DNA from: Fistulifera solaris
Lineage: Eukaryota
Direction: 5' to 3'
Assembly (NCBI GenBank): GCA_030295235.1
Contig: AP026148.1
Coordinates: 186,001-250,000, forward strand
Length of the DNA stretch: 64,000 bases
In this document: in pieces, positions 3,352 to 61,578 of the stretch
How positions within the stretch are numbered: position 1 is the first letter of the stretch
How the letters are laid out: each line of letters opens with the position of its first letter
The notes under the pieces: generated by a model
The model's input: the letters and a program-made list of their open reading frames with translations, nothing else
What the model was told of the DNA's origin: nothing
The model's database searches: none
Position numbers and translations under genes: made by a program

Positions 3352-6300
3352 TTAATCATCCATTGTGATGTCTGTTTCCTCCAACGCTGGAGCCCCCTTG
3401 TTCGCTGCTAAAGCTTCGCACTGGAGTTGCGCTGCTGTTACTTCCTCGACAAGGTCAGCGTCATCGCATTCTTCTTCAAGTTTGTTGATGATCTTTTCCA
3501 TGGCTTTCTCGTACAGGTGGCGGATTTTGGTTTCGGCTCGGAAGTAGGCAGCTCGGTTCTGCAGATCAGACTTGAGTTGTTGGTTTTGCGCTTGCCATTT
3601 CTTCAGGTTCTCGGCCATCTTGGTGTTGTGGGATGCCAAGTTGAGCTTTTGCTTCTCCATGGAATCCAAGGAGGCACCAGCCGACGCATTGGCTTCAATG
3701 AGACGTGAGTTCTGATCTTTCATTTCTTTCATTTCCTCTTTCATCTCATCGGTACGGTCACGGAGCTTCTTATTCTCCTTCTTGAGGTATGAAATGATCT
3801 TGTCTCCTTCTTCGGCCTTCTTTTGTTGGCCTCAATCTCGTCGACTCCAACCTCGGCACCTTGAGCAAGGAGGGCATCCAATCCCTTCTGGAGCTCGGCC
3901 TTTTCGCTCTCAAGTTCTTGCACTTCTTCCTCGGCATCTTGGATCTTTGACTCGTTCTCCTCCTTTGCCTCTTTGAGATGCTTCTCAAGTTTCTTGATCT
4001 TCTTCTCAAGTTTCCTTAGTGCAGCCTGAGCCTCTTCTTCTTCGCGTTGACGAGCTTCCTCGATTTCTCGTTCGCGCTTCTTGCGAGCCATTTCTTCGAG
4101 GCGTTCGCGTTCTTTTCGTTCCTCTTCCTTTCGTCGAGCTTCTTCCTCGGCCTTCCTCTTGGCCTCTTCGGCGCGACGCTTGCGGAGCTCGGCTTCGGCT
4201 TTCTCTATGGCAGCCTTCTTCTTGCGCGCTTCTTCCTCACGCTTCTTGCGCTCTTCCTCTTCTTTCTCTCGAATGCGATCGCCCTTCGACTTTCGGACAA
4301 TGTATCCACGAGCGACACGCTGAATGTGAATCGCTGGGGCATCCAATCCATTCTCAAGGCGGTTGGCTTCCAAAAATTCCAAAGCTCCGGCGCGGAAGTA
4401 AGTGCGAGTGCGTCCGACCACAAAAGCTTTCACCACCTTTCCATTCACGGTCTCTTCTTTCGACTTCAAAGCACAAGTCATAATGGCTTCAATATCGGCT
4501 CGTGCACCTTGATCAGGAGTCATGTCGGCGTTTCGCTTCGACGGGAAGGCCTTATTATCCCACATGTTGGAATATCGGAATCGGGTGACAGCATTGTCGA
4601 GACGGTTGGGGAACGCCGAACGCGATAGAGTCACAGCTGCCACGACACCCGCGCAACGAAGCTGTTCCACAGTGGCCAAATGATCCATCAATACCGGTTT
4701 CTTGACCATGTTGGGCTTGATGCAGCGAATGTAGCGCGAGTTGGTCTTTCGCAAGTTGGCCATGAGAGAATGGAGTTGGTTTTTGTATTTTCCCCAAGCG
4801 GTCTCTCCGACCAAGTTACTTTTTTGGCGCTTGACACCACCTTTGCCCCCCTACCGTGGTGGTCACAACGTCGACCTTCTCGGAGATGATCGAGTTGGTC
4901 GAAGATTTGCACAATTCTTCCAAGTCGGTCGGCAGTGTGTCGGTGTTGCTGTTCACAAACTGGTCGGCGTCGTACAACACCTTTCCGGCGTAGTGGTGAA
5001 TACCGAATGACATGCGGTTCAACTTGTTGACGATCAAGCACGGAGACTTTTCGTTGATTTTCAAGGCCTTTTGCACAAAGTCTTGGTCGTTACCTCCGGG
5101 ACGGACGCATTCTTCGTTCAACATGGCCAGGAGACCGGTGCGGCCTTCAATCAGATCGAGCACGTCGGTGTTGTCATCGTACATGATCTCGGCCAACTCA
5201 ATGCCCTCGGATTCGTATTCTTCCTGAACGGAGCGGAAAATGTCTTCGGTGAATTTCTGCTGCAATTTCTCGTTCGCGTAGTTAATGCAAAGCTGCTCGA
5301 AGCGATTGACGGGGAACGACTCGAAACCGAAAATATCGAGTAGACCAATGATACCAAAGTTCGCCATGGAACCACCCTTGTAGTTGTCTTCGGCGGCAGT
5401 GGCGGCGTTGATCTGTCGGACGAGCCACAAAAAGACGTTGCCGTACATTTCCTTGGCCAAAGCATCGGCGGCATCTTTCGAGGCAATCGGATTGAGCGGC
5501 ACCTTGTAGGTTTCGTTCTTGGTCTTCATCGTACGCTCCGTGAAGGCCTTGGAGCAGGTCGTCGCATCGATACCGATCAATCCCGCCAAGTCGTCGAGTT
5601 CCATTTTCGAGACGACTTCGGCCTTGTCCTTGTCACCGCCGAGCGGAGCAAAGGTGAGGTTACCGCACAACATGACGGCAATGATCGCGCGCATCATTTC
5701 TTTGAGCGTATCGCCTTTCACGTTGACCAATCCTAAAGTCTTGACGGTGTGTTCATAGTGTTGCGCATCCGTCAGGCCTTCAATCTTATCAATGCACGGC
5801 TTGCCAATGTATTTGAAGGAATCGGCCGTCATGTTGGACAATTTGCTCCAGAACTGTCCCTTTTCACTGCTGGACGCCGCCAATAGCTGATAGAAGATAT
5901 GGTAGGTACGTTCTTCGGGGTCGTGTCCGACAATGCGGGGTTTCTCGAGCAAGTAGACATCGCACTTGGAACCGGCGAGTTTGCATTTGGATTCGGTCTT
6001 GTTGCCGAGCGCCATAAGTTTGGCTTCGCTCGTGTCGAATTGCAACTGCAAGTATTTACCGAATCGCGACGAGTTGTCGTTGCGACGTGTCTTGGCATTA
6101 CCAAAAGCTTCGAGGAGAGGATTCGATTCGACGACACGCGCAACGACGGGGTCGAGTTCTTGTCCGGATCTGGCCGCAGGTCCCGCTTGCACACTGGCCA
6201 TGTGATTCATGGCAATCTTGACCGTTTCGGTTTTTCCGGCACCGGATTCTCCAGACACCAAAATGGACTGATCTTCACCACCAAAGGCGAGGCCTTTGTA

Positions 6301-6997
6301 GGAAAGAGCCGACACTTCGTAAACGTGCGGTTCGAGACCTTCTCGCGGATCTTTCTTGGTGTCCGCCCAAACAATCTTTTGCGAATAATAGACGCGCTTT
6401 TCTTCCGTGTAAAGATGATTGAACCACTGGAAGGGATTGACGGCAATAATGATATCTCCCGTGCGTGTGTAAGGTTGACCGTCTTTGTGACGTTCTTTCA
6501 AGTTGTACAAGATACCGGCCTGTTGGGAGGAGGAGTAGGAGAAGGAGGAGGAGGAGAGCGAGAAGAAGAAGTTGAGATGCCGAGTGTAACGTCCTATAAA
6601 GAGAAAAGCACTCTGTCGAGAGACGTACCTCGTGCAAATAAGAAAGCGAAATCATATCCGAGTAAAGGCACAGATTGCCATTTCCGTCAACATTCTGCAA
6701 GGGCAACACTTTGTGGGGATATTCCTTCAAGTTGACGACAACCGAGGTTGTTCCTTTGGCGGATCTTCCACCATCAGAAACAATGGATTGCTGATCTTTG
6801 TATTCAAAGACTTTGACGGTAGCTTTGTCTCCCTCTGAAGGATGGAAAAAAGAAAGGAAATGAGAAAGAGGGCGAACGAGTCATTAAGAGCACGCACGCT
6901 CATCTCAGCAGTTCGTACCTTGCTTTTCCAAAACACCAGGAACCCAAGCATATTCGGGATGTTTGATATAAACGAGCGATTCTTTCTTTTCCGCCAT
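3352..6997 (-). CDS. Myosin heavy chain (diatom-type: motor, 1 IQ, ER/K helix, coiled-coil tail), copy 1
   Basis: P-loop GESGAGKT, switch I NDNSSRFGK, switch II DIFGFE, 'YIRCIKPN', IQ 'IQRVARGY'. Two 5' introns; single-base frameshifts near 4850 and 3830. Confidence 0.95.
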
Positions 6998-8825: not shown

Positions 8826-11800
8826 ATGGGAGGAAAAGACGAGAATGCAACGTCCCATGTCTTTGTAATTGACCCGCAATATGGTTGGAGACCGGCCATT
8901 CAGGAGGGAGCGTAAGTTTTGTCTGCAGGATTTGGCTGGCTGAAAAAGCTCGGGGTATTCCCCCATGTGACCTATGTATTCACTGCAACACTCACACAAC
9001 GCTTGCTGGTTTGTCTTTGAACAGACCCAAAATGGCAAGGCACTCGTCTCCATTCCGGAATACAAAAGCGAAGACTCGATGGATTGTGACGGTGGCCGTG
9101 CTGCCAAGAAAGGAGAACAAATCTACATTAGCATGAAAGAGTATCCCTTCGGAGTGCTTCCTTTGGCGAATGTCGATGTGAACGGAAATTTGGTGGAGTT
9201 TGCGGATATGGTCAAACTCCCTTATCTTCATGAGGTTCGTTGAATTGTGCTTTGTTGGCTTATTCCTTTGCTTATTTTGTACTGACCAGCTTTATATAAC
9301 TTGACAGGCTGCTATTCTTTACAATCTTAAACGACGTCATCGTGAAGGCAAGCCGTACACTCGTACCGGTGACATTATCATTGCGGTCAACCCCTTCCAG
9401 TGGCTTACCCATCTCTACACGGAAAAGAAACGTTCGTACTACTCGAACCGTCTCGTTTGGGAACAAACGGACAAGGATCCTCGGGATGGCATGGAACCTC
9501 ACGTCTACGAGGTATCGGCACTCGCCTACAAAGGATTGGCCTTCGGCAACGTCGACCAGTCTATCTTGGTTTCGGGTGAATCCGGAGCTGGAAAGACCGA
9601 GACGGTTAAGATTGCCATGAACCACATGGCCTCGGTACAGCAAGGACCCAAATCGGAAGCCGATGCAGATATCGCCCAACTCGATCCGGTCGTCGATCGT
9701 GTCGTGCAGTCCAACCCTCTCTTGGAAGCATTCGGAAACGCCAAGACGCTCCGTAACGACAACTCCTCGCGTTTCGGAAAATACTTGCAGTTGCAGTTCG
9801 ACAACAGCTCCGCCGGAGCTGTTCCTTCTACACCCGTTCGACTTGCAAGTTGGTCGGCAGCAAGTGCGAGGTCTACCTTTTGGAAAAGAATCGCGTGACA
9901 CAGCACACGGAGATGGAGCGTACCTACCACGTCTTCTACCAGTTGTTGGCGGCTCCCGACAAACAAAAGTATTGGCCGAAACTCGCGGGCAAGCGAAATG
10001 AAGACTTCAAATACGTTGGCAAGTCGAGCACAACGAAGATTGAGGACATGACCGATGAAGAACACTATCACCACACGGTCAAGGTCCTCCGCATGGTAGG
10101 AGTGGACGATAACATGCTCAAGGAACTCTTTGTTGCCATTGCCATTGTTTTGCAATGCGGTAACCTCGTGTTTGGTGCCAAGGGAGGCGATCGTGACAAG
10201 TCCGAAGTCACTACGCGTACGGAAATCAAGGACCTCGCTGAGTTGCTTGGCGTGGATGATGCGGTGTGCGAGATGGCATTCACGGAACGTACCATGAAGA
10301 CACGCAGTGAAACGTACAAGGTGCCCTTGAAAACGGACGCGGCCAAAGAAGCAGCTGATTCCTTTGCCAAGGAGGTGTATGGCAAGATCTTCTTGTGGGT
10401 TGTGGACCAAGTCAACTCGGCCACCAATGCCGAAACAAACTATCAAGGCGGCGGACGCGACGATTTCGGAATTATTGGTCTTCTCGATATCTTTGGTTTC
10501 GAATCCTTCAAGGTCAACCGCTTCGAACAGCTTTGCATTAACTACGCGAACGAGAAATTGCAGCAGAAGTTCACCGAAGATGTATTCCGCGCTGTCCAAG
10601 AAGAGTACGAATCCGAGGGTATTGAGCTGGCTGAAATTACTTACGATGACAACACCGATGTGCTTGACCTCATTGAAGGCCGTGGAGGTCTTCTTGCCAT
10701 GCTTAACGAAGAATGTGTTCGTCCCGGAGGTAACGACCAGGACTTTGTTCAAAAGGCTTTGATGGCTAACAAGACTTCGCCCTGCCTAATCGTCAACAGG
10801 ACCGATCGCATGTCTTTCGGTGTTCACCACTACGCCGGAAAAGTCATGTACGACGCTGACAAGTTCGTTTCAAGCAATCAGGATACTCTTCCTACGGATT
10901 TGGAGGAGCTTGGCAAGGCCTCAGCGAACAGCATTGTTTCTAGAACGGAGGCGGCAGATACATCCGGCAAGCCGAAGCGCCAAAAGTCGAATATTGTTGG
11001 TCAAACTATCTGGGGCAAGTACAAGACTCAGTTGTCGTCCCTAATGACTAACTTGCGCACCACAAGCTCCCGCTACATTCGATGCATCAAACCCAACATG
11101 CGTAAGGTCCCCGTTGCCATGGAGCACGTCCCAACTATCGAGCAATTGCGGTGCGCTGGTGTTGTCGCCGCCGTTACTCTGGCCCGTTCTGCGTTCCCCA
11201 ACCGTTTGGACAACCAAGCTGTGAAATTCCGTTACAACTCTATGTGGGACAAGAATGCCTTCCCATCGAAGCAAACCAACAACATGACCAAGGAGCAGCA
11301 GGCGAAATGCATTGCTGAAGCTATCTTGACATGTGCTTTGAAAGAAAAGGAAACGAAGAACAAAGAAGGAAAGATTGTTCGACAGTTTGTCGTTGGTCAC
11401 ACAAAGAGTTACTTCCGTGCCGGTGCGTTGGAATACCTTGAATCCAATCGCTCGACTGGTCTGGATGCGCAGGCCACTACGATCCAAAAGTACATGCGTG
11501 GTGCCGTTACACGTATGAGACTCAGGGACATGGTAGAAGGCGCCGCTAAACGAGAACGTGAAGCGCGCTTGGCCAAGGAAAAAGCCCAACGCGAGGCTCA
11601 AGAGAAAGCGGAACGCGAGGCGCGCGAGGCTCGGGAGAAGTTTGAACGAGAAAAGGCCGAACGCGAGAAGGCCCGTGCGGAAGCCAATCAGAAGTACCTA
11701 GACCAAATTGCAAAACTTGAAAATGATTTGAAATTTGAAGAAAGCGAGGGAAAACGACGACTGAAGAATGCGGCCGACAGAAAGACGGAGATACAAAACC

Positions 11801-12345
11801 AGATTGCATCGCTGAAAGAGCAGACAAGCGAAGACGCTAAACGAAAAATATTGGAACCGAAAAAGATTGTCGCTCAGCAAAAGAAAAAGGTGGCAGAACA
11901 AGCCAAAATGATTGATTTCCTGAAGAAGGAGAACAAGAAGATTCGTAAGGAACACGACAAGGTCCAGCAGAAGTACGATGTCGTGGCCGAAAACAACGAA
12001 AAGTTGTTGAAAGCTAGTGATATTGCCGGTGATGACTTTGACAAGAAGGAAGAGCAGATGAGCAAGGTTGATAGCAAGAACAAAACGCTCTCGGATACTT
12101 TGAATGAGGCAAAGTCGTTGAACGCTCAATTGAAGGACGAGTGCATGGCTAAACAAGATGCGTACATGTCTCAAGCAGAAACGCGTCTCGAGTATCAGAA
12201 GACCATGGCACGAATCTTGAATATGATCCAGGACTCCAGTGTCGAAGCCCAGCTTATCGAGGAGACCGTGTGTTGGGCTTTGGAAGCCGAGTCAGAATCC
12301 AAAACGATCATGGCAGCACTTGAAGCTGAAACAGCCATGATGTAG
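8826..12345 (+). CDS. Myosin heavy chain (diatom-type), copy 2
   Basis: GESGAGKT, NDNSSRFGK, DIFGFE, YIRCIKPN, IQ 'IQKYMRG', coiled-coil tail. Introns after exon 1 (~8912) and at LHE|AAIL; frameshift near 9830. Confidence 0.95.
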
Positions 12346-13593: not shown

Positions 13594-13993
13594 TAACTCT
13601 TTGCATGTAAAGTCTATAAATGAAACGACAGAAAAGTGTTGTCTTCGAATTAATAACGAAGTTCGCGTCGCGGACGCTGCTGCGCAATAAGAATGGCATG
13701 ACGCACGACGCTTGACTAAAAATCAGTCGTGGGCCAGAGGATGATGATGCTTCATGTACCGTACCTGGTATTGTAAGTCCAAAACACAAAACATTGTTCA
13801 TGACTCCTCATGACTCACCACCTCATCGAAACGTCCGATGGTTCCAATGTCCCACCACCACATTAGACAATGTACTTGAAACAGTACCTGGTTGGCCTGG
13901 ACCCATTATGAACCCTTCGCTGGACCCATCATATCACAAACAAATACAAACATTACAATTCAAAAAAGAACATTATTGATTCAGCAGAAAACC

Positions 13994-16900
13994 ATGTCGC
14001 ATTACGGAGGAAACAATTCGGGCTCCGGATCGTCTCGTGGCGGTAAGTTGCGCAACTCGGCGAGCTGTACGAACAAGCCACAATCACGTTCACTCCTGTA
14101 TCTTTTCGGAAAGGCGGACACGCAGGATTTCACGGAGGCCACCAAGAGCATTACGATGGATACGGTCCAGGTGGTAAGTCATTGAGTTCGAAGTAGGGAA
14201 AATGCATCAGCGGAATCGAAAACTGATTTTTGTTGCAAAAGGAGGTAATCACTTTCAGCCGGGCCGAGGAAGAGGCCCGGGAAGAGAGAACAACAGGAGA
14301 CGCAATGGTAAGTCGTTAATTTACTTACTTGTTTGAGTTCCTACTTATCTCGATCAAAATCCTTGAATGTACAGACGGAGACTCCGGACTCGGACGAGGC
14401 CCGAATAAGAGACACCAAGGTACGTATCATTTTAAACGATGAATTCCTGCACAGCTGTGTTTGCCCTCGATTTGTCGCTTGATGTCCAATTGATCGTCTT
14501 TCAATTACGGACTTGTTCACTTTATTCTTCACTTCAAATAAAAATACAGGAGATCCGGAGGAGCGCCGAAGGTGGGAGACGAATGGCATTCAAGTCGTCA
14601 CGAATCTCTTCCCGCTGGTGCCAGTATCCAGCGGCCGCGTAGAATTGAATATATATCAGTTCGATATTGAAATCGACTTCTTTCGAAAGAAGAAGAGAGT
14701 TGAAGCAGCTCCGCAGCCTGAGTCGGAAAAGGAAGTTCCTGACGATGCTCAGCCCGCGACACAACCCCAGCCGGAGCGCCGTCCTAAACGTCAGATCAAT
14801 GAGAGATCATCTCCTTTGAGCCGACGTATCTTGCTGGAATGTCAAAAGCAGATCGCCGCTGATTGGTTCTTTCTTACGGATGGAGCAAATATTGCTTATT
14901 CGGTCCAAAACATCCCGGAGAAGTATGATGTGACTAAATTTGACGACAAAGAGGGCGCTGGCATTGTCGTCGAAGTCAGAGATGGCTCCGAGGAAGAATG
15001 TACGTATGCTAAATATGCCGCCACCAAAAAGTACGTCGTCTACTTCAAGCCGGTGGGCGAGTCTTTCCGCATTGTTTTTCACAACGGTAGAATTGACTCG
15101 AGCTGTCAAGAAAGTCTACCCAAGTTCTTCAATTTCATGAATCAAGTATTGAATAATGCCTGCATGAAGGCGGGGATGATTTCTACCAGAAAGAACCCGG
15201 AGCGATACTATTTTCCGCGAGGCATCAGTGCAAATGTTTTGGGCGGGAACTTCCAAAGGCAGAACGAAAGCCATCCTCTTCTAGGTTTGTCGCAGTCGGT
15301 CAGCATAGCGGTAAATGGTTCGATGCAAATCCAGTCGGATTTTGCTTTGGGGTGGTTTGAGCCGGATGTAGAGGAGAAACCGCTGCTGGACCCAGTGACG
15401 AAGAAGCTGGCCGGCGAGAATATAAGCGACCTGCATCGGCCGATCACGGACCCAACTGTTCAAGACAGAGTCAGGAATGCGCTAAAGCCGCTTTTGTTTC
15501 ACACTCGTTACGAACGCGGGCGTGATTGGGAAGCATGTGAAACGAGATTCTTGAGACGCAAGTTAGAAGGCAAAGAGAATTTAGAAGACTTCATTGCCAA
15601 GCAAATTTCGAAGAAGAGGGAACATCGATTCAATGTCCAATTGAACAGGAGACTGTCAAACCCGGATAAGGCCGAGGGAGCTGATATCATTTTTATTCCA
15701 AGCAACTTCACCTTTTCGTTTTTGGGTGAAGAAATGACAGTTGAACAATATTATAGGGCACGGTACGATGTGAACTTGTTGTATCCGCACATGCCCCTGA
15801 TTTGTATTCATTCAAAACGACAAGATTACATGCCAGCGGAATTTTTATATCATGGTGCGTTCAAAACTTGTTGGGGCTTCGTCCTTGATCAACAAACTCA
15901 CTCTTGAACAAAAGCTTTCACACAGAAGAAAAATGCTAATCACGATGATCAGAAACGGATTGCGTTGGCTTTATGCGACCAACATAGTGGATTGAGGCGG
16001 GTCAACTTCATAGAAACCTTGAATACAAATGTCCATGAACCGACCCTCAGAGAAATGTTGGAAAAACTCCAAATCCGAAAGGATTCAAGGCTCACGGTGG
16101 CCGCAGGTGGTATGTGATTCATGAACGCATTGTGACTTTACAGAAATGTGTCATTTCGTTCTCTCACTATCTTCTAGTTTTACAAGAGCCGGATATCAAC
16201 ACAGGCAGCGGAAAGCAACCGCATCCTTATAATGGCTCATGGTCTTGCGACACAGTCGAAACAGGTGGCGTGCTCCATACACTTGCAGTTATCGATTTGA
16301 CTCGACGAAACGAAAGTAATTTTCACGATGTAAAGTCTCTTTTAGAGAAGTGCAGACAGGAACGCATCGACTGTTTACGGTTCCAGCGAGATGATATTGA
16401 TAGGTTGACGGTGTCTTTACCATCGAATTTCCCCCCTGGAGCGAGAGTCGACCTTTCACTAGCTCGGGTAATGGCCAAAAGGTTAGGGAAACAGCATATC
16501 AGTTTTTCCTCTATGGCGGCTATAATCGCCCTTTCAAGACGACCGTTCGCTGCTCTGGAAAGCTCAAAGAATGCGTTGTCGTTCCTTTTAAGGGACTTCC
16601 TGTGTTTTACTTTGAGGAGGACCGATACACGCATCAAGTCCGCGGACACCCACGCAATACGGCAGAACAACTCTATGCAAAGCTTTGCTTCTCGACCTCA
16701 TCCGAAGCAGAAAATTTACTTGACCCGTTTAAACAATTTGACGAAGTTTCTGATCGTTTTGATCAACTGTATATGTTTTATCATGTTGAAACTGGGGACA
16801 TCATACGTGAAATTCAGGGTTTAGACCCGTTCATGCTAGCTGTAGATGGGCTTAGCATTAATCCCGATGATGGGATGATTGACTGCCCCAGCATTGTTAT

Positions 16901-18373
16901 CGTTCGCCTGAAGGATAAGGACGCCATGCAATACTCTTTGCTCAAGTATGCTCTTTATGAAGCGGGTTTACAGGTATGTCTTTATTATTCGCAACAAAAT
17001 CATATTTTACTTATTCTAACACTATCGATCCAGACGCAATGCTTTGTTAATCCGACGAAGCACAATGGCTTCGGAGTTTTGTAAGTTTTATTTTTCGTAA
17101 TTCGATATTTCCTGTTGGCGTGACATTCTAACACTTGACCTAAAGGACTAAAAACCTTGCTATCAAAATTAACGCGAAGCTTGCCAGCCCAATGAACAAG
17201 TCGAACTCGTGGATCGTAAGCGGCCCGGCGAGCCAATGGCTGCGCAACAATGACACCCTGGTTATTGGATACGCTTTTGCCGGTGGTAAGTCATTTGTGA
17301 CTTGTGGTAATAGAATGGTCTTCTTTTAATCTCACATCTTTATGATTTGCAGCTCAGGGCAAATCTGGAAAAATGGTAGTTGCTGCTTCAAGTTGTGTCG
17401 ACGATGAAGGTCTTAGAATGCGACACGCAAACATTGTTCTCCCAAAGCGTCGTACCTGACGCCAGTTGCCGTGGATAGATTGATTTCGGTGAGTGCACCG
17501 ATGCTGGTAAAACTGCCGTGTCTAAAGCGCTCAAAGTGATTATTCTCTCTTGAAGTCCCTCTACGAACAATACGTAAACGACAGGGAAAAGCGCCCCAAA
17601 CATCTCATTGTCTACCGATGCAACGGTCAGGATACTGAGCTAGAAGGTTCGTCCAACAAGTAGTCTTACATTTCGAATGCTTTCTCACTTTTATTTTGTT
17701 CGCAGGCATCAAAGAGAACGAGCTCAAAACATTTGAGACAATCTTTCGAGCGAAGAGCTCGTGCCGGAACGATGACAACCCCGAACTTCCTCCTGTCAGA
17801 AATCCGGTAGTTACTTTTCTGGTCGCACAAACCCTCTCCAGTCCCAAACTTGCTCCTGTTCAGAAATTGGATAGAGGAAACAATGTCCCATCAGGAACTT
17901 GTGTCACAGACCCTCGTGCTATCAGCCAAATCATCACCGGAAGCGACGGGAGCAACGAGTCGTCGACCTTGAAAAGAGCTGAAAGGAACTATGACTTCAT
18001 ACTGGTTCCTCAGCAGGGACTGAAGGGGACATCCAAGCCTGTCTATTATCGAGTCTTGAAACTTGGAATAAGTGGGAGCCAGCAGGCTATTAAAGATGTC
18101 ACGTATTCGTTGAGCTTCCGCTACGCAACTGCTACAAAAGTGCCCCGATTGCCCGCTGTATTGCTTTATAGCCAGCGCATTGCTGGAGTAATTCTGGCAT
18201 GTCTACCGGAATTGAAGGATCCGTTTGAGGGCAGAGCGATGTTCGACGGAGGAAATGATTACGATTACTTCCGGCGTTTCCCAAACCAAGACCCAGACCG
18301 AGGTATTGCAGACCACATGGTTTTCACTGACATTGAGGGCCCCACACCCTTCCACCCCCACCTGTTGGCATAG
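13994..18373 (+). CDS. AGO: Divergent Argonaute/PIWI-family protein (Gly/Arg-rich N-terminus, N, PAZ, L2, MID, PIWI), predicted slicer-inactive
   Basis: Manual splicing gives introns 14043-14113, 14174-14241, 14308-14374, 14420-14549, 15855-15914, 16110-16177, 16974-17033, 17081-17145, 17286-17352, 17489-17555, 17647-17705. Motifs: 'IQVVTNLFPL' (N), 'MTVEQYYRARYDVNLLYPHMPLI...YMPAEFL' (PAZ), 'GVLQEP...NGSW' (L2), 'QYSLLK...GLQTQC...NLAIKINAKL' (MID), 'NVPSGTCV...YDFILVPQQGLKGTSKPVYYRVL...TYSLSFRY...LPAVLLYSQRIA' (PIWI). Two 1-nt shifts are needed (~16435, ~17442). Confidence 0.92.
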
Positions 18374-19619
18374 GATTGATATAGGACTTTACATATTGCA
18401 TTTCGATCTGTTTCATAGTCTTTCGAGAATAGGTGGTTCTTTTCATCGCACATACTCTATTTAATGGCTTCGTCTACGCATGGACTATGGTTGGCAGCGG
18501 TCTCCGTGTATGCATGTGTCTTTAGCGATGAGTTCTGTCGTTCCATGAGGATGTTGAGAGTGATCGGGTGGCGCCACACGATAATGCCAGCCGCAACGAC
18601 CCTTCGCGAAAGAAGATGACACGTGATATAATAGGAAAGCTTGAAGCTCGACCCCCACTGATCAAAACGAGACGCCTCCGTCCGAGAGTCTTGCTCGAAC
18701 ATTCTTGCTAGGCACGGTGAAAATATTGACAGCCCGCTTTTGTTTAGTAGCGAACACGACCGACGAAATCACCATAGCTCGTATAAAACAATTCCACTGA
18801 ATCAAACCGAATGGCATTCACACCAGCGAACGCGTGCTCTTTGGTGGAGTCCCAGTAAGCCGTTACACAAGCAAATCTTTCGATATCTGATGAAGGCCAC
18901 CCATCCGAAAATGAATCGGATGGATTTCATGACAATTCAAAAAATGACGGGCATGACCTGTCGCATTATAAATAACCTTTACGTAGCATCGAGAACATTG
19001 GATTGCTGCCGAGAGGGAATTTAGGAAGTACGCGAACATGTCCCGAAGAACGATGAATCATCGACGTAATGTTTTGACAGCAGCGGCGTGAACCAAATAC
19101 CAGTTCTTATCACAACACCGAAGAATAGCATGGTACCTGGTAGGAATGAATTAGGATGGTCGTTGACACGACAAAAATGCAGGCGTCGTCGTCGTCGTCG
19201 TCTGTAAGTGCCGATAAGCCGACGACAAGGTGCCGCAAAACCTGAAATTTTGAAATCGTGTTGGTTCTGTGTCCTTTAGAATGACCAATGACCCAAAAGT
19301 ACAGATTATCGTACAGCCTATACCAACATAGACCTACCGCACGTAAACACGCATCTTGCTGGGACTCCGTTCTCGTTTTCTTTCTAAGATAAATAGCAAC
19401 AGAGCTTATGTGTATGTAGTATTGCCCAATGACCAGTGAATGAAAGTGCCAATAAAATAGATCCAAGACGTGCGTTTTTCGCCGCCAAGACCGACCGGGA
19501 CGAAAGTGTAAACAAGAAAACGAAAAACAAACACACCCGATTATCTGGTATTCTCATTTCATTATTTATATCTTCTGCTTTTGTCAAAAGTCAAAATACT
19601 CCTCTCAATTTCCAAGACC

Positions 19620-22600
19620 ATGACAGACTCGATTGATACCGAGACACCCGTCTACTTGAAATCCGCCGCACACGGCTGGATTCCTGCTGTGCTATTGAAA
19701 CAAGTCGCCGGCGGGAAAATGGCTCGCGTCGCTGTCCCCAAATTCAAACACGAAAATGATTTGTTGACCTGCGGCAAAATGTCGAAAGCCCAACTCATGG
19801 ATACGATCGATATTCCCCTTTCTGAATACGACAACAACGTCTTGCCGGTGCAGAATGTCGACGCGAATGGGAATTTGGAAGATTACAAAGATATGGTCGA
19901 ATTGCCGTTCATGCACGAGGTACGTCACGACCAAAAAGTTTGTTTACTCGTTCGTTTCTAACATTGCAGCTAAAATACTTGTTTTTCTTGTTTTTTTCTT
20001 CCAGGCCGCCATTCTGTACAATCTCAAATTACGACACAAGAATCAGAAACCATACACTCGTACGGCCGATATTGTCATTGCGATCAACCCGTATCACTGG
20101 TTGAATCATCTTTATACACACGAAAAGCAAACCTACTATTCGAATCGTTTGGTATGGGACAACAACGAAGAAGATCCCCGTGCGACACTCGAACCGCATG
20201 TTTACGAAATATCCGCCTTGGCCTACAAAGGACTCATTCGAGAAGGAGAAGGCAAAGATCAATCCATCCTCGTGTCGGGAGAATCCGGAGCCGGGAAAAC
20301 GGAAACGGTCAAGATTTGTTTGAATCATATTGCGAGTACACAAGCCAAAGAGGATTATTATTACGAAGACCAGATTGTCAAACGCGTCGTCGAATCGAAT
20401 CCTCTACTCGAGGCTTTTGGTAATGCCAAGACACGTCGCAACGACAACTCGTCGCGGTTCGGCAAGTACTTGCAATTGCAGTTTGACAAGTCGCACAATC
20501 GTACCGAATCGTACGGGACACGACGAGGTCAAGTTCCCTTGGTGGGTAGCAAGTGTGATGTGTATTTGCTCGAGAAGAATCGTGTCGTGCAGCACGATGA
20601 TCAAGAACGTAGTTTTCACATCTTTTATCAATTACTGGCATCGCCCGACAAGACCCAATACTGGTCGGAACTCCAAGGCAAAACTCCGGAATCTTACTCG
20701 TACTTGGGTCGTTGTACTACTACCAGTATTGAAGGTGTCAGTGATGCCGATCACTTCCGTCACACGGTTGAAGCACTCCAGCTCGTGGGTGTTCAAGGAC
20801 GTGACCTGCACATGCTCATGCAGGCCATTTGTGCCGTGTTGCAATTGGGAAATCTGCGATTCGGGGCGTTGCACGGAGATTCCGACAAGTCGACCGTCGT
20901 TTCGCTCGAGGAATTGCGTGTGTTGGGAGATTTGATTGGCATTGCGCCCCAGAATCTTTCGATGTGCATGACCGAACGTACGTTCACGACCAGTGGAGAG
21001 ACGCACAAGGTTCCGCTCAATCCCATCATGGCCAAGGATGGTTGTGATGCGTTGGCGAAAGAGATTTACCAAAAAGTCTTTTTATGGGTCACGAAAAGAT
21101 CAACGACGCCACCAGTGTCGACGAGACCGCCATGAAACTCGGTTACATTGGATTGCTTGATATCTTTGGTTTCGAAACGTTCGAGGTCAACCGGTTCGAA
21201 CAGCTCTGCATCAACTACGCCAACGAGAAATTGCAGCAAAAGTTCACTCAAGATGTCTTTACCAATGTTGAGAAAGAGTACATTGCCGAAGGAATCGATC
21301 TTGCGGAAATCAAGTACGAAGACAATGGAGAGGTTCTCGAATTGATTGAACACCGCTCCGGTTTGATCGCTCTTTTGAATGAAGAATGCGTCCGTCCCAA
21401 GGGCAATGACTTCGAATATGTCCAGAAAGCGCTCGCGATCAACAAGGATGCCAGCAAGCTCATGATCCATCGCACTGACCGCTTGTCCTTCGGTATCAAG
21501 CACTACGCCGGAGACGTGATGTACAGCGCCGAATATTTCGTGACGCGCAACTTGGATACTCTCCCCACGGACTTGCAAGAATGCATGGAAAAGTCCTCCA
21601 ACGAGATCCTCAGCATCTTCCAAGCCGACGACGTGCATGCACAGAAGCCTCATCCTCACAACGCACCACGCCAGAAGAGTAACATTGTCGCGGCCACCGT
21701 GTGGACGAAGTACCGCGGCCAGTTGGAGAACTTGATGAAGAATTTGCGCCAGACGGAATCGCGCTACATTCGATGCATCAAGCCCAATACCGAAAAGAAA
21801 GAATTGTTGATGGAACACAATCTCGTGGTGGATCAACTTCGCTGTGCCGGTGTCGTGGCAGGTATTACAATCGCCCGCAGCGTCTTCCCCAACCGTTTGC
21901 CCAACAGTCTGGTGTTGACGCGCTACTCCAACATGTGCGACGCACGATCCTCCACTGCCGGACAAAAGAGTGCAGAGAAGTGCAAGCTCCTCTTGAACTG
22001 GCTTCTCAAGGACATGGACGCCGTGAACGAGAATGGTGACAAGGTTAAGGCGTTTGTGGTAGGAAAAACCAAGACCTTCTTCCGCGCGGGTGCCCTCGAG
22101 TGGTTGGAGTCGCACCGCATTCGCAGTGTGGACTTGCAGGCAATCATCATTCAAAAGGTCGCACGCAGTTGGCTCGTTCGTAACAAAGGCAAACGCTTGA
22201 ATCACCGACGTCGCATGGAAGAAGAGGCCAGGCGACGCGAAGAACAGGCGAGATTGGCCCATGAAGCACGCTTGAGAGAAGAAGAACAGCAGCGTAAGGC
22301 AGAGCACCAGAAGAAGATCCGGGAAATGGAAGCCACGATCCAGCGTCTAGAAGCTCAAGCCGAAGCAGAAAGCCGCATGCAGCAAGAAAGGCTCAAAGCC
22401 GCACGCGAACGTGCCGAATTGTTGCGAGAGGAGAAGGAGATGTTGGCGGAACGCATCGAGGAAAGGAAGGCCAAGGATGTTCGTCAGCGAATCGCCACAA
22501 AGGAGTTGCAGAAGAAGCAGTTGGATGAGATCAAACGAGCCATCATGTTCTTGCAGCAGCAGAATAAGCTATTGCAGAAGGAACATATGAAACTCGAGTT

Positions 22601-23036
22601 GAAACTGGAACAAGAGATGCTCCGCTTGAACAATGCCAGCAGCAATTGCAACATGCTCGAGGACAGTTTAAGCAACATGTATGCTTCAGCGGACAAGGTC
22701 AGTCGCAATCATGACAGCTTATCGAGAGGAATCGATTCGGCCAAACAGGAGAACGAAAAGATGTCGGCTCGGGTGGACGATGCACAGAGTCGTTACATGG
22801 CCCAAGCCGAAACGCGATTACATTTGCAGAGAAACATGGCACGCATTCTCAATCTCGCTCAAGACAAATGCCGCGACCATTCGTTGTTAGAGTTCATCCA
22901 GTCGACTGCCTACGAGTGCGAGAACGATTCCAAGGTGATCATGGCCGGATTGGAAGCTGAATTGGATGATAGTGGTCGGCCCAGTTTGACGCCTCTCTCG
23001 GATCATTCGTCCTCTGGCACGGACCGTAGTCAATAA
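19620..23036 (+). CDS. Myosin heavy chain (diatom-type), copy 3
   Basis: GESGAGKT, NDNSSRFGK, DIFGFE, YIRCIKPN, IQ 'IQKVARSW', coiled-coil tail. One intron at MHE|AAIL; frameshift near 21095. Confidence 0.95.
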
Positions 23037-38952: not shown

Positions 38953-40462
38953 ATGGGAGCCGATAAGAAAGAAATCCTTCGTCAAAAGACCGAAGCAGCC
39001 GAAGCCGCTGCCAAAGAAGCTCAAGAAGCCACCGCACGCGCCGAACGTTTGGCCAAGGAAGTCAAGGAGCTTGCCGAGCAACTGAAGAGTTCTGGCAAGA
39101 AGACGAAAGCTACGAAATCTGTTGTCAGTGACGACGAGCAGAAGAAAGCCGAAGAGTCAGACTCGGACAGTAGCAGCAGTAGCAGAGACTCGGACTCTGA
39201 CAGCGATGATCCGAAGAAGACGGCCGTGAAACCAAAGGTGGCTGCCAAAAAGAAGAAAGCGACGATTCTTCCAGCGATGACTCAACATCTGATGACGAGG
39301 ACGACAAAGCGGCTGATAAGATGGAGGTAGAAAAGACCGAAAAATCTGCCAAGAAAGAAGAATCGTCGGACTCGTCGTCGAGCGACTCGGACAGCTCTAG
39401 TAGCGAATCAGAAGACGAAGAAGAAGAAGCCCCGAAAGTGGCTTCCAAGAAAGCAGAAATTAAGAAGAAACCCGATGACTCATCTTCTTCCTCCTCTTCT
39501 GACAGTGACTCGGACGAAGAGGAAGAAAAAGTAGCTCCGAAAGCGAAGGCTGCGGCAAAGAAGGAGGAATCGGACGACTCGTCTTCTTCATCTTCGGATA
39601 GTGACTCAGATAACGACGACGACGACGACGACGAAGCTGAAAAGGCTCCAGAAAAATCAAGTGGCAAGCGCAAGGCTGAAGATATCGAAGCAGCTGCCCC
39701 CACCCCCAAGAAGGCTGCCGTGAGCGACGAAGCCACCGAAGGCAACAAGGTGTACGTTCGAGGCCTTCCGTGGAAAGCGGAGGAACACGAAGTACAAGAG
39801 TTCTTTGCTGCCTGTGGTCCGATCAAATCGTGCGAGATGCCACTCATGGACGACGGAAGAAGCTCCGGAACTGCCATTATTGAATTTGAGACCAATGAAG
39901 GCGCCGCCGCCGCGATCGAGCTCAATGGGGGAGACTTTCAAGGCCGGTGGTTGAGCATCAAGTATTCAACTCCAAAACCTATTCTTTCTGCCCGAGAGCC
40001 TACACAGAAGCAAGACGGTTGCGTGACTGTCTTTGTGGGAAATCTGGCGTGGGACGTGGACGAAGATACGCTTCGTCAAGCATTTGGTGAATGCGGTGAA
40101 ATAACTTCGGTTCGGTTTGCGACGGACCGAGAAACTGGCGAATTCAAAGGATTCGGCCACATTGAATTCACCGATACTGAAGCCACCGACAAGGCGATTG
40201 CTATGGCTGGCACTGACATTTTGGGTCGACAAGTCCGAGTCGACTATGCCAATGACAAGAAAGCAGGCGGAGGCGGCGGAGGATTCGGAGGCGGCGGTGG
40301 CCGAAGCAACGACCGTGGCGGTCGCGGAGGAGGACGTGGCCGGGGTCGCGGTGGTGACAGTGGAGGCCGTGGCGGTCGAGGACGCGGAGGAGGAAATTCT
40401 TTTAACGCGAAAAAGACGGGTGGAATTACTGCTTTTGCCGGCAAAAGATTTCGTTTGATTAA
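38953..40462 (+). CDS. Nucleolin/Nsr1/Gar2-like protein (acidic-serine tracts, 2 RRMs, RGG tail)
   Basis: S/D/E-rich blocks; RRMs 'KVYVRGLPW' and 'TVFVGNLAW...KGFGHIEF'; RGG repeats; C-terminal GKKISFD after a 1-nt shift. Another shift near 39255. Confidence 0.9.
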
Positions 40463-40501
40463 CGGATTAACTAAAAAAAGTCTGTAACAAAATACAATGA
40501 A

Positions 40502-45030: not shown

Positions 45031-46125
45031 TCAAATTGAAAGATCTATTCCATTTCGTGGAGCGTGTTGAACAGATATTGCCGCGGAAGTAGGCTGGGGA
45101 TCCATACTGTAGGCAGACACATCATCTTCCGGTTCCTGGTGACTCAAAGTGGGAGAAACAATGGGGGATCGTGACGGGGTTACAATCTGCGACGTGGGTG
45201 CCATCCCCGAAACCGAAACACGAGCTAAGGTTTCTCGTATCGTTTGAATGTCCATTTCCAGGTCTTCCACTGTTTTCTCGAGAACCGAAATGAAGCATTT
45301 CTTTCGGTCCCGGGTCAACTTGGCATGCATTCGATTTCGCTCACGTCTGAATTTACAGTTGACGTAGAACCAAGGTAAGTTAGAGCAAGAGGTATAGCTT
45401 TGGTAGTCTCAATATTGGTCTCGGGAGGACACGTACCGCAATTTCTGTAGCTGCTCGTTCGTCAACGTTTTGTGAAATCCTTTGTTGTCGCTGTAGACAC
45501 CAGTTTTCCAATTGACATGACAGCCTCCACCTAAGATCGTCAATTCACCGTCGATGGACACCTTCATAGATTTTGATGAAAACTGATAATCATTACTTTC
45601 GACGAAAAATCGCTTTCGTTTGCCTTCTGTCAAGACGGTCACGTGTGTCTCATTCTTTCGTTCCTTTTTCGAACGGAACATGTCCACATCCACGTCGTTG
45701 TGTGGTTCTTCTTCATTTGATGACATTCCCAGTAGAATGGAAGCAATGTTACATTCTTCCATCTTTTGCTTCAGATTCTTGCGTTCCGCTTCGAGTTCTC
45801 TGACTTTAGATTGCAAGGCTTCCAAATGCTCCTTCTTTCGAATGCGAGTCCGACGTGCGTGTTCGCGGTTTCGTTCTCTACTTTTCGCAAGTCGTTGCTC
45901 CCATCCCTCTTTCGGCCGTCGGGAGATTGCTTGCTCCTGTCCAGTTGGTACGGTCGGAGAAGCGTGAGAAGATGTCTCCAAGATTTCTGTGTGCGTCATT
46001 GTGTGGCGTTGTTCTTCGAAAATAGATTGCGGAATATTCGACCCGGGAAACGACGATTCTCCGTGTTGCAGTGCTGCCACAGCGAATGCCAAGGCAATAG
46101 ATTGGTTATCATGAGACGTATTCAT
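45031..46125 (-). CDS. Transcription factor with two bZIP domains
   Basis: 'KSRERNREHARRTRIRKK...L...V..L' and, across intron 45347-45436, 'RRERNRMHAKLTRDRKK...LE..V..L'. Confidence 0.85.
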
Positions 46126-46714
46126 GGTTCTCGATTGAATTGATGTGTAATGTCTTCGATCATCAGAAATGAAAGACGTACTACTCCTTCTCCGACGACA
46201 ACAGCTGTGAGAATCATCTCCAAACGAACAGTGAGAAAGCAAAACCAAAAAGAGCAGATTGCCATTGGTATCCTGTTCCTTGGTATGCGAACCGTAAGAT
46301 GCATACGTCACTCCCTACGTGACCGTCGTAGAATTCTACGAACGGCCGATCGGCCAATGACCGCAAAGAACGACTCAATATCCGGTCGCGTCGATGTGGG
46401 GGCACGGCGGGCGTACTCGAAACCTCAGAGTGATTCCAGTGCCTCTGTTCGGCGACAGCTGTTGAAACGCGCAACGAATGCCTTTCGTACTTTGTGAAAA
46501 ACAGTGTTGAATTTGAAAATTGGCGCGAAAAAACAGAACCTGCGTCGTCGATGGAAGAAAGAAGAAGATCTTTTCTGTCTGTACGCCGTACGTCACTAAA
46601 AGCAGTCCTGCTCGTGATTCACAACAAAAAATAATGACCAAGGTCGACAAAAATTACAACAATCAAACCATCAAAAGCCGTTATCATTCGACAAACAACA
46701 ATGATGATAAAAGA

Positions 46715-61125: not shown

Positions 61126-61578
61126 ATTGTTTGAAATGGTTTTTAATGCTTATTGCTGTTTGATTCGTTGCGTAGTAAGGAAAGAATGGCAAGGAAAGGC
61201 TCGTTTTCTTTCATGTTTCTTTACGGGGGATTTCATTCTTTGGTTGGATGCCATCGTGACGGACGACGGATAGGTTTTCACAGCGCGCAATGTGCGTGCG
61301 CGGTGCGCGGAGCAACATTCGTTTGGGCAGAACGACCAGTAACCTTATTGTACAGAAAACGCACCATAAAGCGAATGAAATCTACAAGAATGCCAAGTAA
61401 AAAAGTACGGTACACATTCCGTATAATTGGTTAGCTCAGGAGACAAGAGATATGAATGCTGAATCTATTTTGTTAGAATTAAGTCTTAGATAACTATCCG
61501 ACAAGGATGCTTTCCTTCTCTACTTTGTAGCAAAGTCGAAAGGCGTCGCGAGTGTTTCGCTCTCTCATATTTCAGTTT

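Follow-up and report, generated by a model that had tools for sequence, protein, structure and literature searches.

The locus at positions 13994 to 18373 (+) of the window, the 64,000-nucleotide stretch of Fistulifera solaris DNA that was analysed, is a 1,199-aa Argonaute gene of 12 exons and 11 GT-AG introns. The encoded protein is the public entry "hypothetical protein FisN_9Lh322 [Fistulifera solaris]". With a probability of about 0.8, we read the locus as an intact, expressed gene of this raphid pennate diatom, whose product would anchor a guide but not slice and belongs to a divergent diatom clade.

Gene structure, frame breaks, and transcript evidence

A preliminary description of this DNA, made from the letters alone, had reported only open reading frame fragments joined by 11 GT-AG introns. 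This was borne out by the ORF track, which holds fragments only from 13994 to 18373, and by the splice model that connects them (Table 1). However, splicing the 11 introns does not by itself give the full protein, as had been supposed. The CDS joined from the letters of the window is 3,598 nt long and changes frame twice, in the exons at 16178-16973 and 17353-17488. At each break, the window sequence is 1 nt short within a homopolymer run when compared with read contigs. An unspliced contig from X1 with a depth of 16.4 restores both, and the second is also restored in all three spliced contigs covering position 17440. The repair of the first break (16476) comes from one DNA-like contig alone, possibly the assembly's own source data, and lies outside RNA cover. 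With the A and the C added, the CDS of 3,600 nt translates into a protein identical at every residue to FisN_9Lh322 (1,199 aa). Because two contig-supplied bases suffice for this exact match, the frame breaks are errors of the window assembly and not features of the gene. Extra introns of 35 to 38 nt were also considered as their cause and dropped, as the read contigs show single-base insertions. The neighbouring myosin gene likewise has a frame change at a homopolymer without a candidate intron, a hint that such assembly errors are systematic. As a practical warning, homopolymer errors of 1 nt in this assembly disrupt real genes.

The gene is transcribed, spliced, and polyadenylated. Runs X2 to X4, none of which is recorded as RNA, were taken as cDNA-like from the splicing of their contigs and one poly(A) tail. 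A check of the splice model against RNA had been proposed in advance; the spliced contigs support eight of the 11 introns and place the poly(A) end at position 18404, but introns 14308-14374, 14420-14549, and 15855-15914 lie outside RNA contig cover. An untranscribed locus or real frameshifts, which the preliminary description had named as grounds against its own reading, are contradicted by the spliced and polyadenylated contigs and by the repair of both breaks in read contigs. One X2 contig reads unspliced through intron 17489-17555.

Table 1. Features of the Argonaute locus, in window coordinates
Feature	Position	Strand	Evidence or remark
Exon 1	13994..14042	+	Begins at ATG; Gly/Arg-rich disordered N-terminus starts; donor 14043 seen in spliced contig
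Intron 1	14043-14113	+	
Exon 2	14114..14173	+	Both flanking introns seen as GT..AG joints in one X2 contig
Intron 2	14174-14241	+	
Exon 3, GRGRGPGR motif	14242..14307	+	Acceptor contig-confirmed; donor 14308 without spliced-contig cover
Intron 3	14308-14374	+	
Exon 4	14375..14419	+	Both flanking introns inferred from GT-AG signals, reading frame, and identity with FisN_9Lh322
Intron 4	14420-14549	+	
Exon 5, N domain, L1, most of PAZ	14550..15854	+	Pfam PAZ E = 6.1e-08 and ArgoN E = 0.0015 on ORF
Intron 5	15855-15914	+	Without RNA cover
Exon 6, PAZ end and L2	15915..16109	+	Donor 16110 confirmed by X4 contig
Intron 6	16110-16177	+	
Exon 7, MID with ~150-aa insertion	16178..16973	+	Both flanking introns contig-confirmed
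Intron 7	16974-17033	+	
Exon 8	17034..17080	+	Both flanking introns contig-confirmed
Intron 8	17081-17145	+	
Exon 9	17146..17285	+	Flanking introns contig-confirmed
Intron 9	17286-17352	+	
Exon 10, Glu-finger region LPKASYLTPVAV at 17439-17473	17353..17488	+	Alignments
Intron 10	17489-17555	+	
Exon 11	17556..17646	+	Both flanking introns confirmed by X3 and X4
Intron 11	17647-17705	+	
Exon 12, C-terminal PIWI	17706..18373	+	Pfam Piwi E = 5.4e-16; stop codon 18371-18373
Poly(A) addition site	18404	+	X3 contig with 24 loose A residues behind 18404
First frame break, A4 run lacking one A	16477..16480	+	X1 contig inserts A behind 16476
Second frame break, C3 run lacking one C	17441..17443	+	C behind 17440 in X1, X2, X3, and X4, one contig each
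Beta-rich MID insertion, residues ~655-812	16420..16892	+	Common to diatom-type clade
Pocket codon Y826	16932-16934	+	Exon 7
Pocket codon K830	16944-16946	+	Exon 7
Pocket codon Q841	17037-17039	+	Exon 8
Pocket codon K862	17165-17167	+	Exon 9
Pocket codon K866	17177-17179	+	Exon 9
A898, first Asp position (GYAFAG; GxDVxH strand)	17273-17275	+	GCT, exon 9
S935, Glu-finger position	17450-17452	+	By MAFFT, exon 10
C969, second Asp position (YRCNG; YRDG motif)	17619-17621	+	TGC, exon 11
Q1134, His position (LLYSQRIAG; YYAH motif)	18173-18175	+	CAG, exon 12

Domains, catalytic centre, and guide pocket

On the evidence of profiles and a predicted model, FisN_9Lh322 is a full N-PAZ-MID-PIWI Argonaute, as had been proposed. 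Pfam finds Piwi (E = 1.1e-30, residues 814-1140) and PAZ (E = 9.2e-08); the PAZ domain covers residues 461-522, corresponding to window positions 15710-15955. The AF2 model has a mean pLDDT of 77.6 and a pTM of 0.74, with residues 1-72 below a pLDDT of 50. It aligns by VIA with human AGO2 at Z 31.9 and an rmsd of 3.5 Å, with model residues 83-1199 covering 761 of the 803 AGO2 residues, and by Foldseek with human AGO1 (PDB 4krf) at E = 1.4e-40 and a target-normalised TM of 0.74. The hhalign probability against the canonical-only profile is 99.94% over 763 columns. AGO structures (Z 29-32) and PIWI structures (Z 27-28) lie little apart among the VIA matches in the PDB. By sequence, the best PDB match reaches an E value of only 4.6e-08 (HMMER), and the N and MID domains contain large insertions.

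None of the four catalytic residues of the slicer tetrad is present, the positions reading A898, S935 (or L937), C969, and Q1134. The codons first named for three of them are exact (GCT at 17273 for A898, TGC at 17619 for C969, and CAG at 18173 for Q1134). The assignments of the two Asp positions and the His position agree across a 67-row MAFFT alignment, a 44-row MAFFT alignment, and the canonical-only HMM. All 17 canonical rows have Asp at the first position, against A898 here, and all 17 have Asp at the second, against C969. Pairwise HMMER alignment with human AGO2 pairs ysQ with yaH, confirming Q1134 at the His position. The Glu-finger position varies with the alignment, falling on S935 by MAFFT and on L937 by the canonical-only HMM. 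Consistent with the initial observation of no glutamate at the finger, residues 931-942 (LPKASYLTPVAV) contain no Asp or Glu. The acidic residue D943, which is Glu in the fragments of relatives, lies 6 to 8 residues downstream of the finger position. The residues beside the tetrad are changed as well, namely, the His of DVxH and the Gly and Ser of RDGVS. It had been allowed that a structural alignment might place acidic residues at the tetrad positions; the sequence alignments place A, S/L, C, and Q there.

Fragments of relatives with 50-64% identity keep GYAFAG, YRCNG, and LLYSQRIAG, and their finger is non-acidic (LPKSP[YCL]L). The gene is not decaying, because these relatives retain identical degenerate motifs. 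Slicing requires a DEDH/D tetrad, as cited in the available text of PMC6284064. FisN_9Lh322 should not slice its targets, since slicing is not expected of an RNase-H-like centre that lacks all four catalytic residues.

The MID pocket for the guide 5' phosphate is complete, confirming the residues first noticed there: Y826 and K830 (QYSLLK), Q841 (TQC), and K862 and K866 (KINAKL). Every one of the 21 diatom-type rows and of the 17 canonical rows has the same five residues, and Cys842 and Asn864 beside the pocket are likewise invariant, as in canonical Argonautes. By our own count, FisN_9Lh322 retains 28 of the 40 columns that are invariant among the 17 canonical Argonautes, including all seven in MID. 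At the sequence level, the canonical PAZ invariants F293, Y311, and P340 (P0144 numbering) correspond to F462, Y474, and P502, and the near-invariants Y316 and E342 (same numbering) to Y479 and E504.

The diatom-type clade and its MID insertion

FisN_9Lh322 falls in a 28-row diatom-type clade that separates from 39 canonical rows with an SH-aLRT of 100, in a quick LG+G4 search with midpoint rooting in which the canonical rows are unnamed representatives. Its own branch, with a length of 1.7, is flagged for long-branch attraction. The named members of the clade are all diatoms (Thalassionema, Thalassiothrix, Nitzschia, Entomoneis, Ditylum, and Odontella). The first Asp is found in 1 of the 28 diatom-type rows and the His in none, while 13 of 21 rows retain the second Asp. 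Across this single divergent clade of diatom Argonautes, absence of the first Asp and of the His is the rule; in FisN_9Lh322, one of its fast-evolving members, the Glu and the second Asp have gone as well.

That diatom Argonautes form a separate clade with a poorly conserved catalytic site already stands in the available text of De Riso et al. 2009 (PMC2724275). As Argonautes that do not slice are also common, the advance here is incremental. FisN_9Lh322 stands out little within a group that is unusual but already known. The preliminary description had called it a specialised, non-cleaving Argonaute; the lost tetrad and the kept pocket agree with this, but a missing first Asp and His are general in the clade, and the poor catalytic site was in print in 2009 (PMC2724275). 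The finding comes close to the case that the same description had set against itself, that of an ordinary diatom AGO ortholog whose substitutions are already described. In the open literature, no paper was found on FisN_9Lh322 or on a MID insertion of diatom Argonautes (subscription papers were outside the scope), and "Fistulifera solaris" and "Argonaute" occurred together only as co-mentioned terms.

The spacing from G593 to Y826 is 234 residues in FisN_9Lh322 and 216-296 in all 21 diatom-type rows, compared to 92-116 in the 17 canonical rows. The insertion of about 150 aa in MID is thus clade-wide in the diatom-type rows and missing from all 17 canonical rows, and it adjoins the guide 5'-phosphate pocket. 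Foldseek of the insertion against the PDB gave no match at E <= 0.001 (best 0.46), and VIA-align against 48,161 chains gave none at Z >= 5. The best VIA-align matches are SH3/Tudor-like barrels with Z <= 3.9, led by a Tudor domain (Z 3.9, rmsd 3.2 Å, 47 residues), which is noise level. The ESM Atlas gave ArgoMid/ArgoL2-context clusters only, at 0.90. We offer as a speculation, more doubtful than probable, that the diatom Argonaute lineage dropped slicing and gained the domain of about 150 residues as an effector-recruiting or chromatin-reading module, FisN_9Lh322 being the extreme case of a pure RNA-guided adaptor. If this were true, diatom RNA silencing, including laboratory knock-down, would be wholly slicer-independent and would rely on a domain unseen in any studied Argonaute.

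Proposed mode of action, alternatives, and known systems

The mode of action of FisN_9Lh322, including guide binding, the absence of slicing, and all downstream steps, is our inference. The 5' phosphate of a guide RNA would most likely be held in the canonical MID pocket and its 3' end gripped by PAZ, and silencing would proceed through target binding and the recruitment of partners, without cleavage. Further downstream, our guess is the silencing of transposons or repeats, either in chromatin or in translation, and its mediator may be the Gly/Arg-rich N-terminus or the MID insertion of the clade. F. solaris, an oil producer of biotechnological interest, belongs to the diatoms, a group of major primary producers. 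Antisense and hairpin knock-down are in use in diatoms without their effector mechanism being understood. If FisN_9Lh322, and apparently the whole diatom clade, has no slicer centre but retains the guide pocket, silencing there is probably a matter of recruitment and not cleavage, which bears on the design and interpretation of knock-down constructs.

A pseudogene, that is, a decaying relic with real frame breaks and drifted catalytic residues, would account for the two frame changes needed by the 3,598-nt spliced CDS of the window and for the replacement of all four catalytic residues. It is hardly credible, however, as the read contigs supply the missing A and C (the C in all four runs, three of them spliced and cDNA-like), the transcript is spliced and polyadenylated, 28 of 40 canonical invariant columns are retained, and the same degenerate motifs are conserved in relatives at 50-64% identity; the homopolymer frame change of the myosin neighbour, which suggests a systematic assembly error, points the same way. 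We also regard it as very improbable that cleavage persists, whether through non-canonical residues such as D943 with other carboxylates or through an active site contributed by a partner nuclease. Position 943 is acidic in FisN_9Lh322 and in the fragments of relatives, and antisense or hairpin knock-down works in P. tricornutum despite a poor AGO catalytic site, according to the available text of PMC2724275. Nevertheless, the Ala, Cys (YRCN), and Gln at the strand and helix positions, placed there by three alignment methods, could not bind metal in the manner of RNase H, the adjoining His of DVxH and Gly and Ser of RDGVS are replaced too, and the DEDH/D requirement cited in PMC6284064 stands against it. 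Guide RNA binding might instead have been wholly lost, leaving an Argonaute-fold scaffold. The strong divergence (best PDB E value 4.6e-08, branch length 1.7) and the large N and MID insertions would fit this, but it is improbable, since the five pocket residues, Cys842, and Asn864 show no variation, just as in canonical Argonautes, the PAZ domain retains its invariant positions, and relatives preserve the C-terminal ...PFHPHLLA end. Such conservation is difficult to account for unless the ligand is a nucleic-acid 5' end.

A guide-anchoring, non-slicing FisN_9Lh322 could also be a second, specialised paralogue, serving the separate, lineage-specific small-RNA pathway that the preliminary description had suggested, in a cell that also has a less degenerate diatom Argonaute. 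This seems somewhat unlikely. Some members of the diatom-type clade keep the Glu and the second Asp, the latter in 13 of 21 rows, and others, including FisN_9Lh322, do not; extra copies would be plausible in F. solaris, which we take to be allodiploid. On the other hand, homologue searches with the C-terminal exon, with residues 560-1199, and with a 15-row PIWI alignment listed 2, 7, and 3 matches, among which there was no other F. solaris protein, a weak point given that the searches were word-limited and the representatives unnamed. The named members of the 15-row subgroup of FisN_9Lh322 are all pennate (Thalassionema, Thalassiothrix, Nitzschia, and Entomoneis), and those outside it are centric (Odontella and Ditylum). 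This split looks like the species phylogeny of one gene and not like two old paralogues, with only 7 named taxa to judge from. One AGO apiece is reported for P. tricornutum and T. pseudonana.

The proteins of these two species, Pt2_47611 (Phaeodactylum tricornutum) and Tp3_1029 (Thalassiosira pseudonana), resemble FisN_9Lh322 in diatom origin and PAZ-MID-PIWI architecture, a likeness drawn from the available text of PMC2724275; in F. solaris, all four catalytic positions are lost. Neither protein occurs by name among the search matches. A degenerate tetrad with a mostly kept pocket also occurs in other stramenopiles. According to Bollmann et al. 2018 (PMC6284064), the Phytophthora AGO5, AGO8, and AGO9 groups mostly retain the Y-K-Q-K pocket, while their tetrads read, for example, S-D-G-_, N-D-G-R, and C-D-D-R. 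In contrast to the diatom homologues, which are placed outside the AGO-like and PIWI-like groups, these oomycete paralogues are AGO-like, and no MID insertion is reported for them in the available text of PMC6284064. FisN_9Lh322 shares the four-domain fold and the intact 5'-phosphate pocket with human AGO1 and AGO4 (PDB 4krf and 6oon) and Drosophila Piwi (6kr6), with VIA Z values of 29-32. These slicer-inactive eukaryotic Argonautes act without target cleavage. In human AGO1 and AGO4, most of the tetrad is still present and the inactivity has subtler causes, whereas in FisN_9Lh322 all four tetrad residues are gone; sequence identity is only 14-19%.

Gene structure, frame breaks and transcript support

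The stop-to-stop ORFs at the Argonaute locus were only fragmentary, and Pfam searches of these ORFs returned PAZ (E = 6.1e-08), Piwi (E = 5.4e-16), and ArgoN at E = 0.0015, which is under its cut-off. We therefore derived a splice model by pairing strong donors (GTAAGT, GTACGT, GTATGT, GTGAGT, GTGCGT, and GTTCGT) with the nearest frame-keeping AG. The resulting gene has 12 exons and 11 introns, each of 59 to 130 nt, and this pairing reproduced the 11 GT-AG introns counted in the preliminary description. However, the open frame expected there after splicing was not obtained from the window, as the spliced coding sequence is 3,598 nt long with two frame switches, one within exon 16178-16973 and one within exon 17353-17488. 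Frameshifts had been named in that description solely as a circumstance that, if real, would make the locus a pseudogene.

The gene region (13900-18500) was compared with contigs from four public sequencing runs (X1 to X4), all from one study. An unspliced X1 contig with 16x coverage spanned the whole region with zero base differences, but with two insertions relative to the window, an A behind 16476 and a C behind 17440; X1 is possibly the source data of the assembly itself. The additional C was also found in X2, X3, and X4 (one contig each). Site 16476 lies outside the X2-X4 contigs, and the extra A is known from X1 alone. The first site is an AAAA homopolymer (16477-16480) and the second a CCC homopolymer (17441-17443). 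With the two bases restored, the coding sequence is 3,600 nt, and its translation is identical, letter for letter, to P0001, a public 1,199-aa hypothetical protein of F. solaris (FisN_9Lh322), with which the C-terminal exon shows 100% identity. Because the contigs include the missing A and C and the corrected coding sequence yields P0001, the two frame breaks are assembly errors and not the lesions of a pseudogene. The codon coordinates that had been assigned to the substituted tetrad residues are exact against the corrected coding sequence.

Contigs of X2 to X4 splice out 8 of the 11 introns exactly, with GT..AG ends (see the table). One contig carries 24 terminal A's after 18404, 31 nt beyond the stop codon. 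No run is recorded as RNA; we term X2 to X4 cDNA-like solely on the grounds of spliced contigs and a poly(A) tail. The proposed RNA check of the splice model was thus positive for eight introns in cDNA-like contigs, and the three outside the spliced cover are based on splice signals, frame, and identity with P0001. This Argonaute gene is intact, and it is expressed. The intron at 17489-17555 was unspliced in one X2 contig and removed in X3 and X4 contigs, indicating that the library contains some retained introns or pre-mRNA.

Features of the Argonaute gene and its surroundings, in window positions
Feature	Position	Strand	Evidence
Myosin-head gene	3744-6651	-	Pfam Myosin_head, E = 8e-149
Myosin-head gene	9757-12342	+	Pfam Myosin_head, E = 5e-123
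Argonaute gene	13994-18373	+	
N-terminus (residues 1-75)	13994-14554	+	
Introns seen spliced, first four	14043-14113, 14174-14241, 16110-16177, 16974-17033	+	X2-X4 contigs
MID insertion (residues about 655-812)	16420-16892	+	
Introns seen spliced, last four	17081-17145, 17286-17352, 17489-17555, 17647-17705	+	X2-X4 contigs
D943 codon	17474-17476	+	
Myosin-head gene	19768-23033	+	Pfam Myosin_head, E = 7.7e-93 / 4.8e-83
Two-RRM protein	39210-40484	+	Pfam, E = 5.9e-37
bZIP factor	45412-46314	-	Pfam, E = 4.5e-06
GTPase, MMR_HSR1 type	59377-61149	-	Pfam, E = 2.6e-12

Argonaute fold, guide pocket and catalytic centre

P0001 is a full Argonaute that is very distant by sequence from those with solved structures (best phmmer E-value, 4.6e-08; 14 to 19% identity in structural alignments). 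Pfam identified Piwi at residues 814 to 1140 (E = 1.1e-30) and PAZ at residues 461 to 522 (E = 9.2e-08). An AlphaFold2 model built from a 44-row alignment had a mean pLDDT of 77.6 and a pTM of 0.74, with pLDDT below 50 only at residues 1-72, 122-154, 1057-1060, and 1150-1188. Its top Foldseek match was human AGO1 (4krf; E = 1.4e-40; target-normalised TM, 0.74), and VIA-align superimposed it on human AGO2 (4w5q) with a Z of 31.9 and an rmsd of 3.5 A over 761 aligned residues, spanning model residues 83 to 1199.

The 5'-phosphate pocket is canonical as read from the alignments, and the catalytic residues have all been lost. In the 44-row alignment, the pocket residues Y826, K830, Q841, K862, and K866 are unchanged in 17 of 17 canonical AGO/PIWI rows and in 21 of 21 rows of the divergent diatom-type clade, five pairs of which come from the same 90% clusters. 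The first Asp of the slicer tetrad is replaced by A898 (GYAFAG), the second by C969 (YRCNG), and the His by Q1134 (LLYSQRIAG). These assignments were concordant among a MAFFT alignment with 67 rows of PIWI parts, the 44-row alignment, and an HMM made from the 17 canonical rows only; pairwise HMMER against human AGO2 likewise placed Q1134 at the His position. The Glu finger position falls on S935 (MAFFT) or L937 (canonical-only HMM), and no acidic residue was found across residues 931 to 942. By hand count, 28 of the 40 columns invariant across the canonical rows are kept in P0001, including 7/7 in MID and 3/3 in PAZ; the 12 changed columns include Asp1 and His of DVxH and the Asp2, Gly, and Ser of RDGVS. 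The sequence and the model thus give good support to the earlier reading of a slicer-dead, guide-binding protein, which is a prediction. D943 is acidic and lies 6 to 8 residues past the expected finger; the corresponding residue is Glu in four relatives' fragments (VAAEKLIS).

Relatives and placement within the diatoms

An exhaustive HMMER search returned 433 proteins with an E-value of 0.001 or lower, 71 at 1e-10 or lower, and 19 at 1e-30 or lower. The nearest are exon-sized fragments with 44 to 64% identity, three of them from one 6,612-nt contig. Where these fragments cover the tetrad sites, they read GYAFAG (1/1), YRCNG (1/1), and LLYSQRIAG (1/1), and the finger region reads LPKSP[YCL]L, non-acidic, in 4/4. 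Because the same motifs occur wherever the sites are covered, the degenerate catalytic centre is, on this sequence evidence, itself conserved, and the gene is not decaying.

Full-length relatives share at most 31% identity with P0001, and every one that is named comes from a diatom (Thalassionema, Thalassiothrix, Nitzschia sp. Nitz4, Entomoneis, Ditylum, and Odontella). A quick maximum-likelihood tree of 67 PIWI parts separated 28 diatom-type from 39 canonical rows (SH-aLRT, 100). Within the diatom-type clade, P0001 has a long branch (1.7) and groups in a five-row set (SH-aLRT, 96) with the protein P0030 and an Entomoneis-type trio, where long-branch attraction was flagged. Asp1 is present in only 1 of the 28 diatom-type rows (the protein P0002) and His in none, with Asp or Glu at the fourth tetrad position in two. 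Asp2 is retained in 13 of the 21 diatom-type rows of the 44-row alignment, and the finger position is Glu or Asp in several of them. In the 15-row subgroup containing P0001, the named members are all pennate, and those named outside it are centric; a single gene that tracked the species tree would give this pattern, with only seven taxa named.

A slicer-dead, guide-binding diatom Argonaute is not new in kind and is largely as published for diatom Argonautes. One PAZ-MID-PIWI protein was identified in Phaeodactylum tricornutum and one in Thalassiosira pseudonana, with a poorly conserved catalytic site and a separate diatom position (De Riso et al. 2009; PMC2724275). Maumus et al. 2011 (PMC3145265) give one AGO for each published diatom genome and a "diversified complement" for Fragilariopsis. 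The diatom homologues again fall outside the AGO-like and PIWI-like groups in Bollmann et al. 2018 (PMC6284064), where numerous degenerate tetrads are described among oomycete paralogues. Our literature search did not turn up any publication dealing with the F. solaris protein.

All 21 diatom-type rows contain about 150 extra residues in MID that are absent from the 17 canonical rows; the spacing between two invariant residues, G593 and Y826, is 234 residues in P0001 and 216 to 296 in the diatom-type rows versus 92 to 116 in the canonical rows. This insertion was modelled confidently as one helix and a series of beta strands (pLDDT of 80.2 when folded alone), and motifs within it are common to the diatom-type clade. 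It gave no fold match above noise against solved structures and no family match, and we found no description of it in the published texts consulted.

Putative role and neighbouring genes

P0001 would load a small RNA and pair with targets that it could not cut, and it may silence them by bringing in other factors. We favour chromatin-level repeat silencing as the role, with translational repression as the alternative, because P. tricornutum small RNAs are reported to have links with transposons and with DNA methylation (PMC4247016). Candidate recruitment surfaces for such factors are the MID insertion and the Gly/Arg-rich disordered N-terminus, in which the first 82 residues include 24 Gly, 12 Arg, and 8 RG/GR dipeptides. 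This N-terminus is reminiscent of the RG/RGG tails borne by other Argonautes. Residues 1 to 75 are disordered (pLDDT below 50) and also rich in His, with GRGRGPGR and GLGRGP motifs.

The Argonaute gene is flanked by three myosin-head genes, which form a local cluster and have no obvious connection with RNA silencing. In the third of these, ORFs 19768-21132 and 21048-23033 are in different frames and continue one Pfam profile (to position 350, then from 350). No GT-AG intron candidate was found between them (about 21075-21105, + strand), and the junction contains A5, T5, and A4 runs. Judged from the sequence, this frame change is probably another 1-nt homopolymer assembly error, and together with the breaks in the Argonaute gene it suggests that the error is systematic. 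On the minus strand, ORFs overlap in a similar way at 4819-4850.
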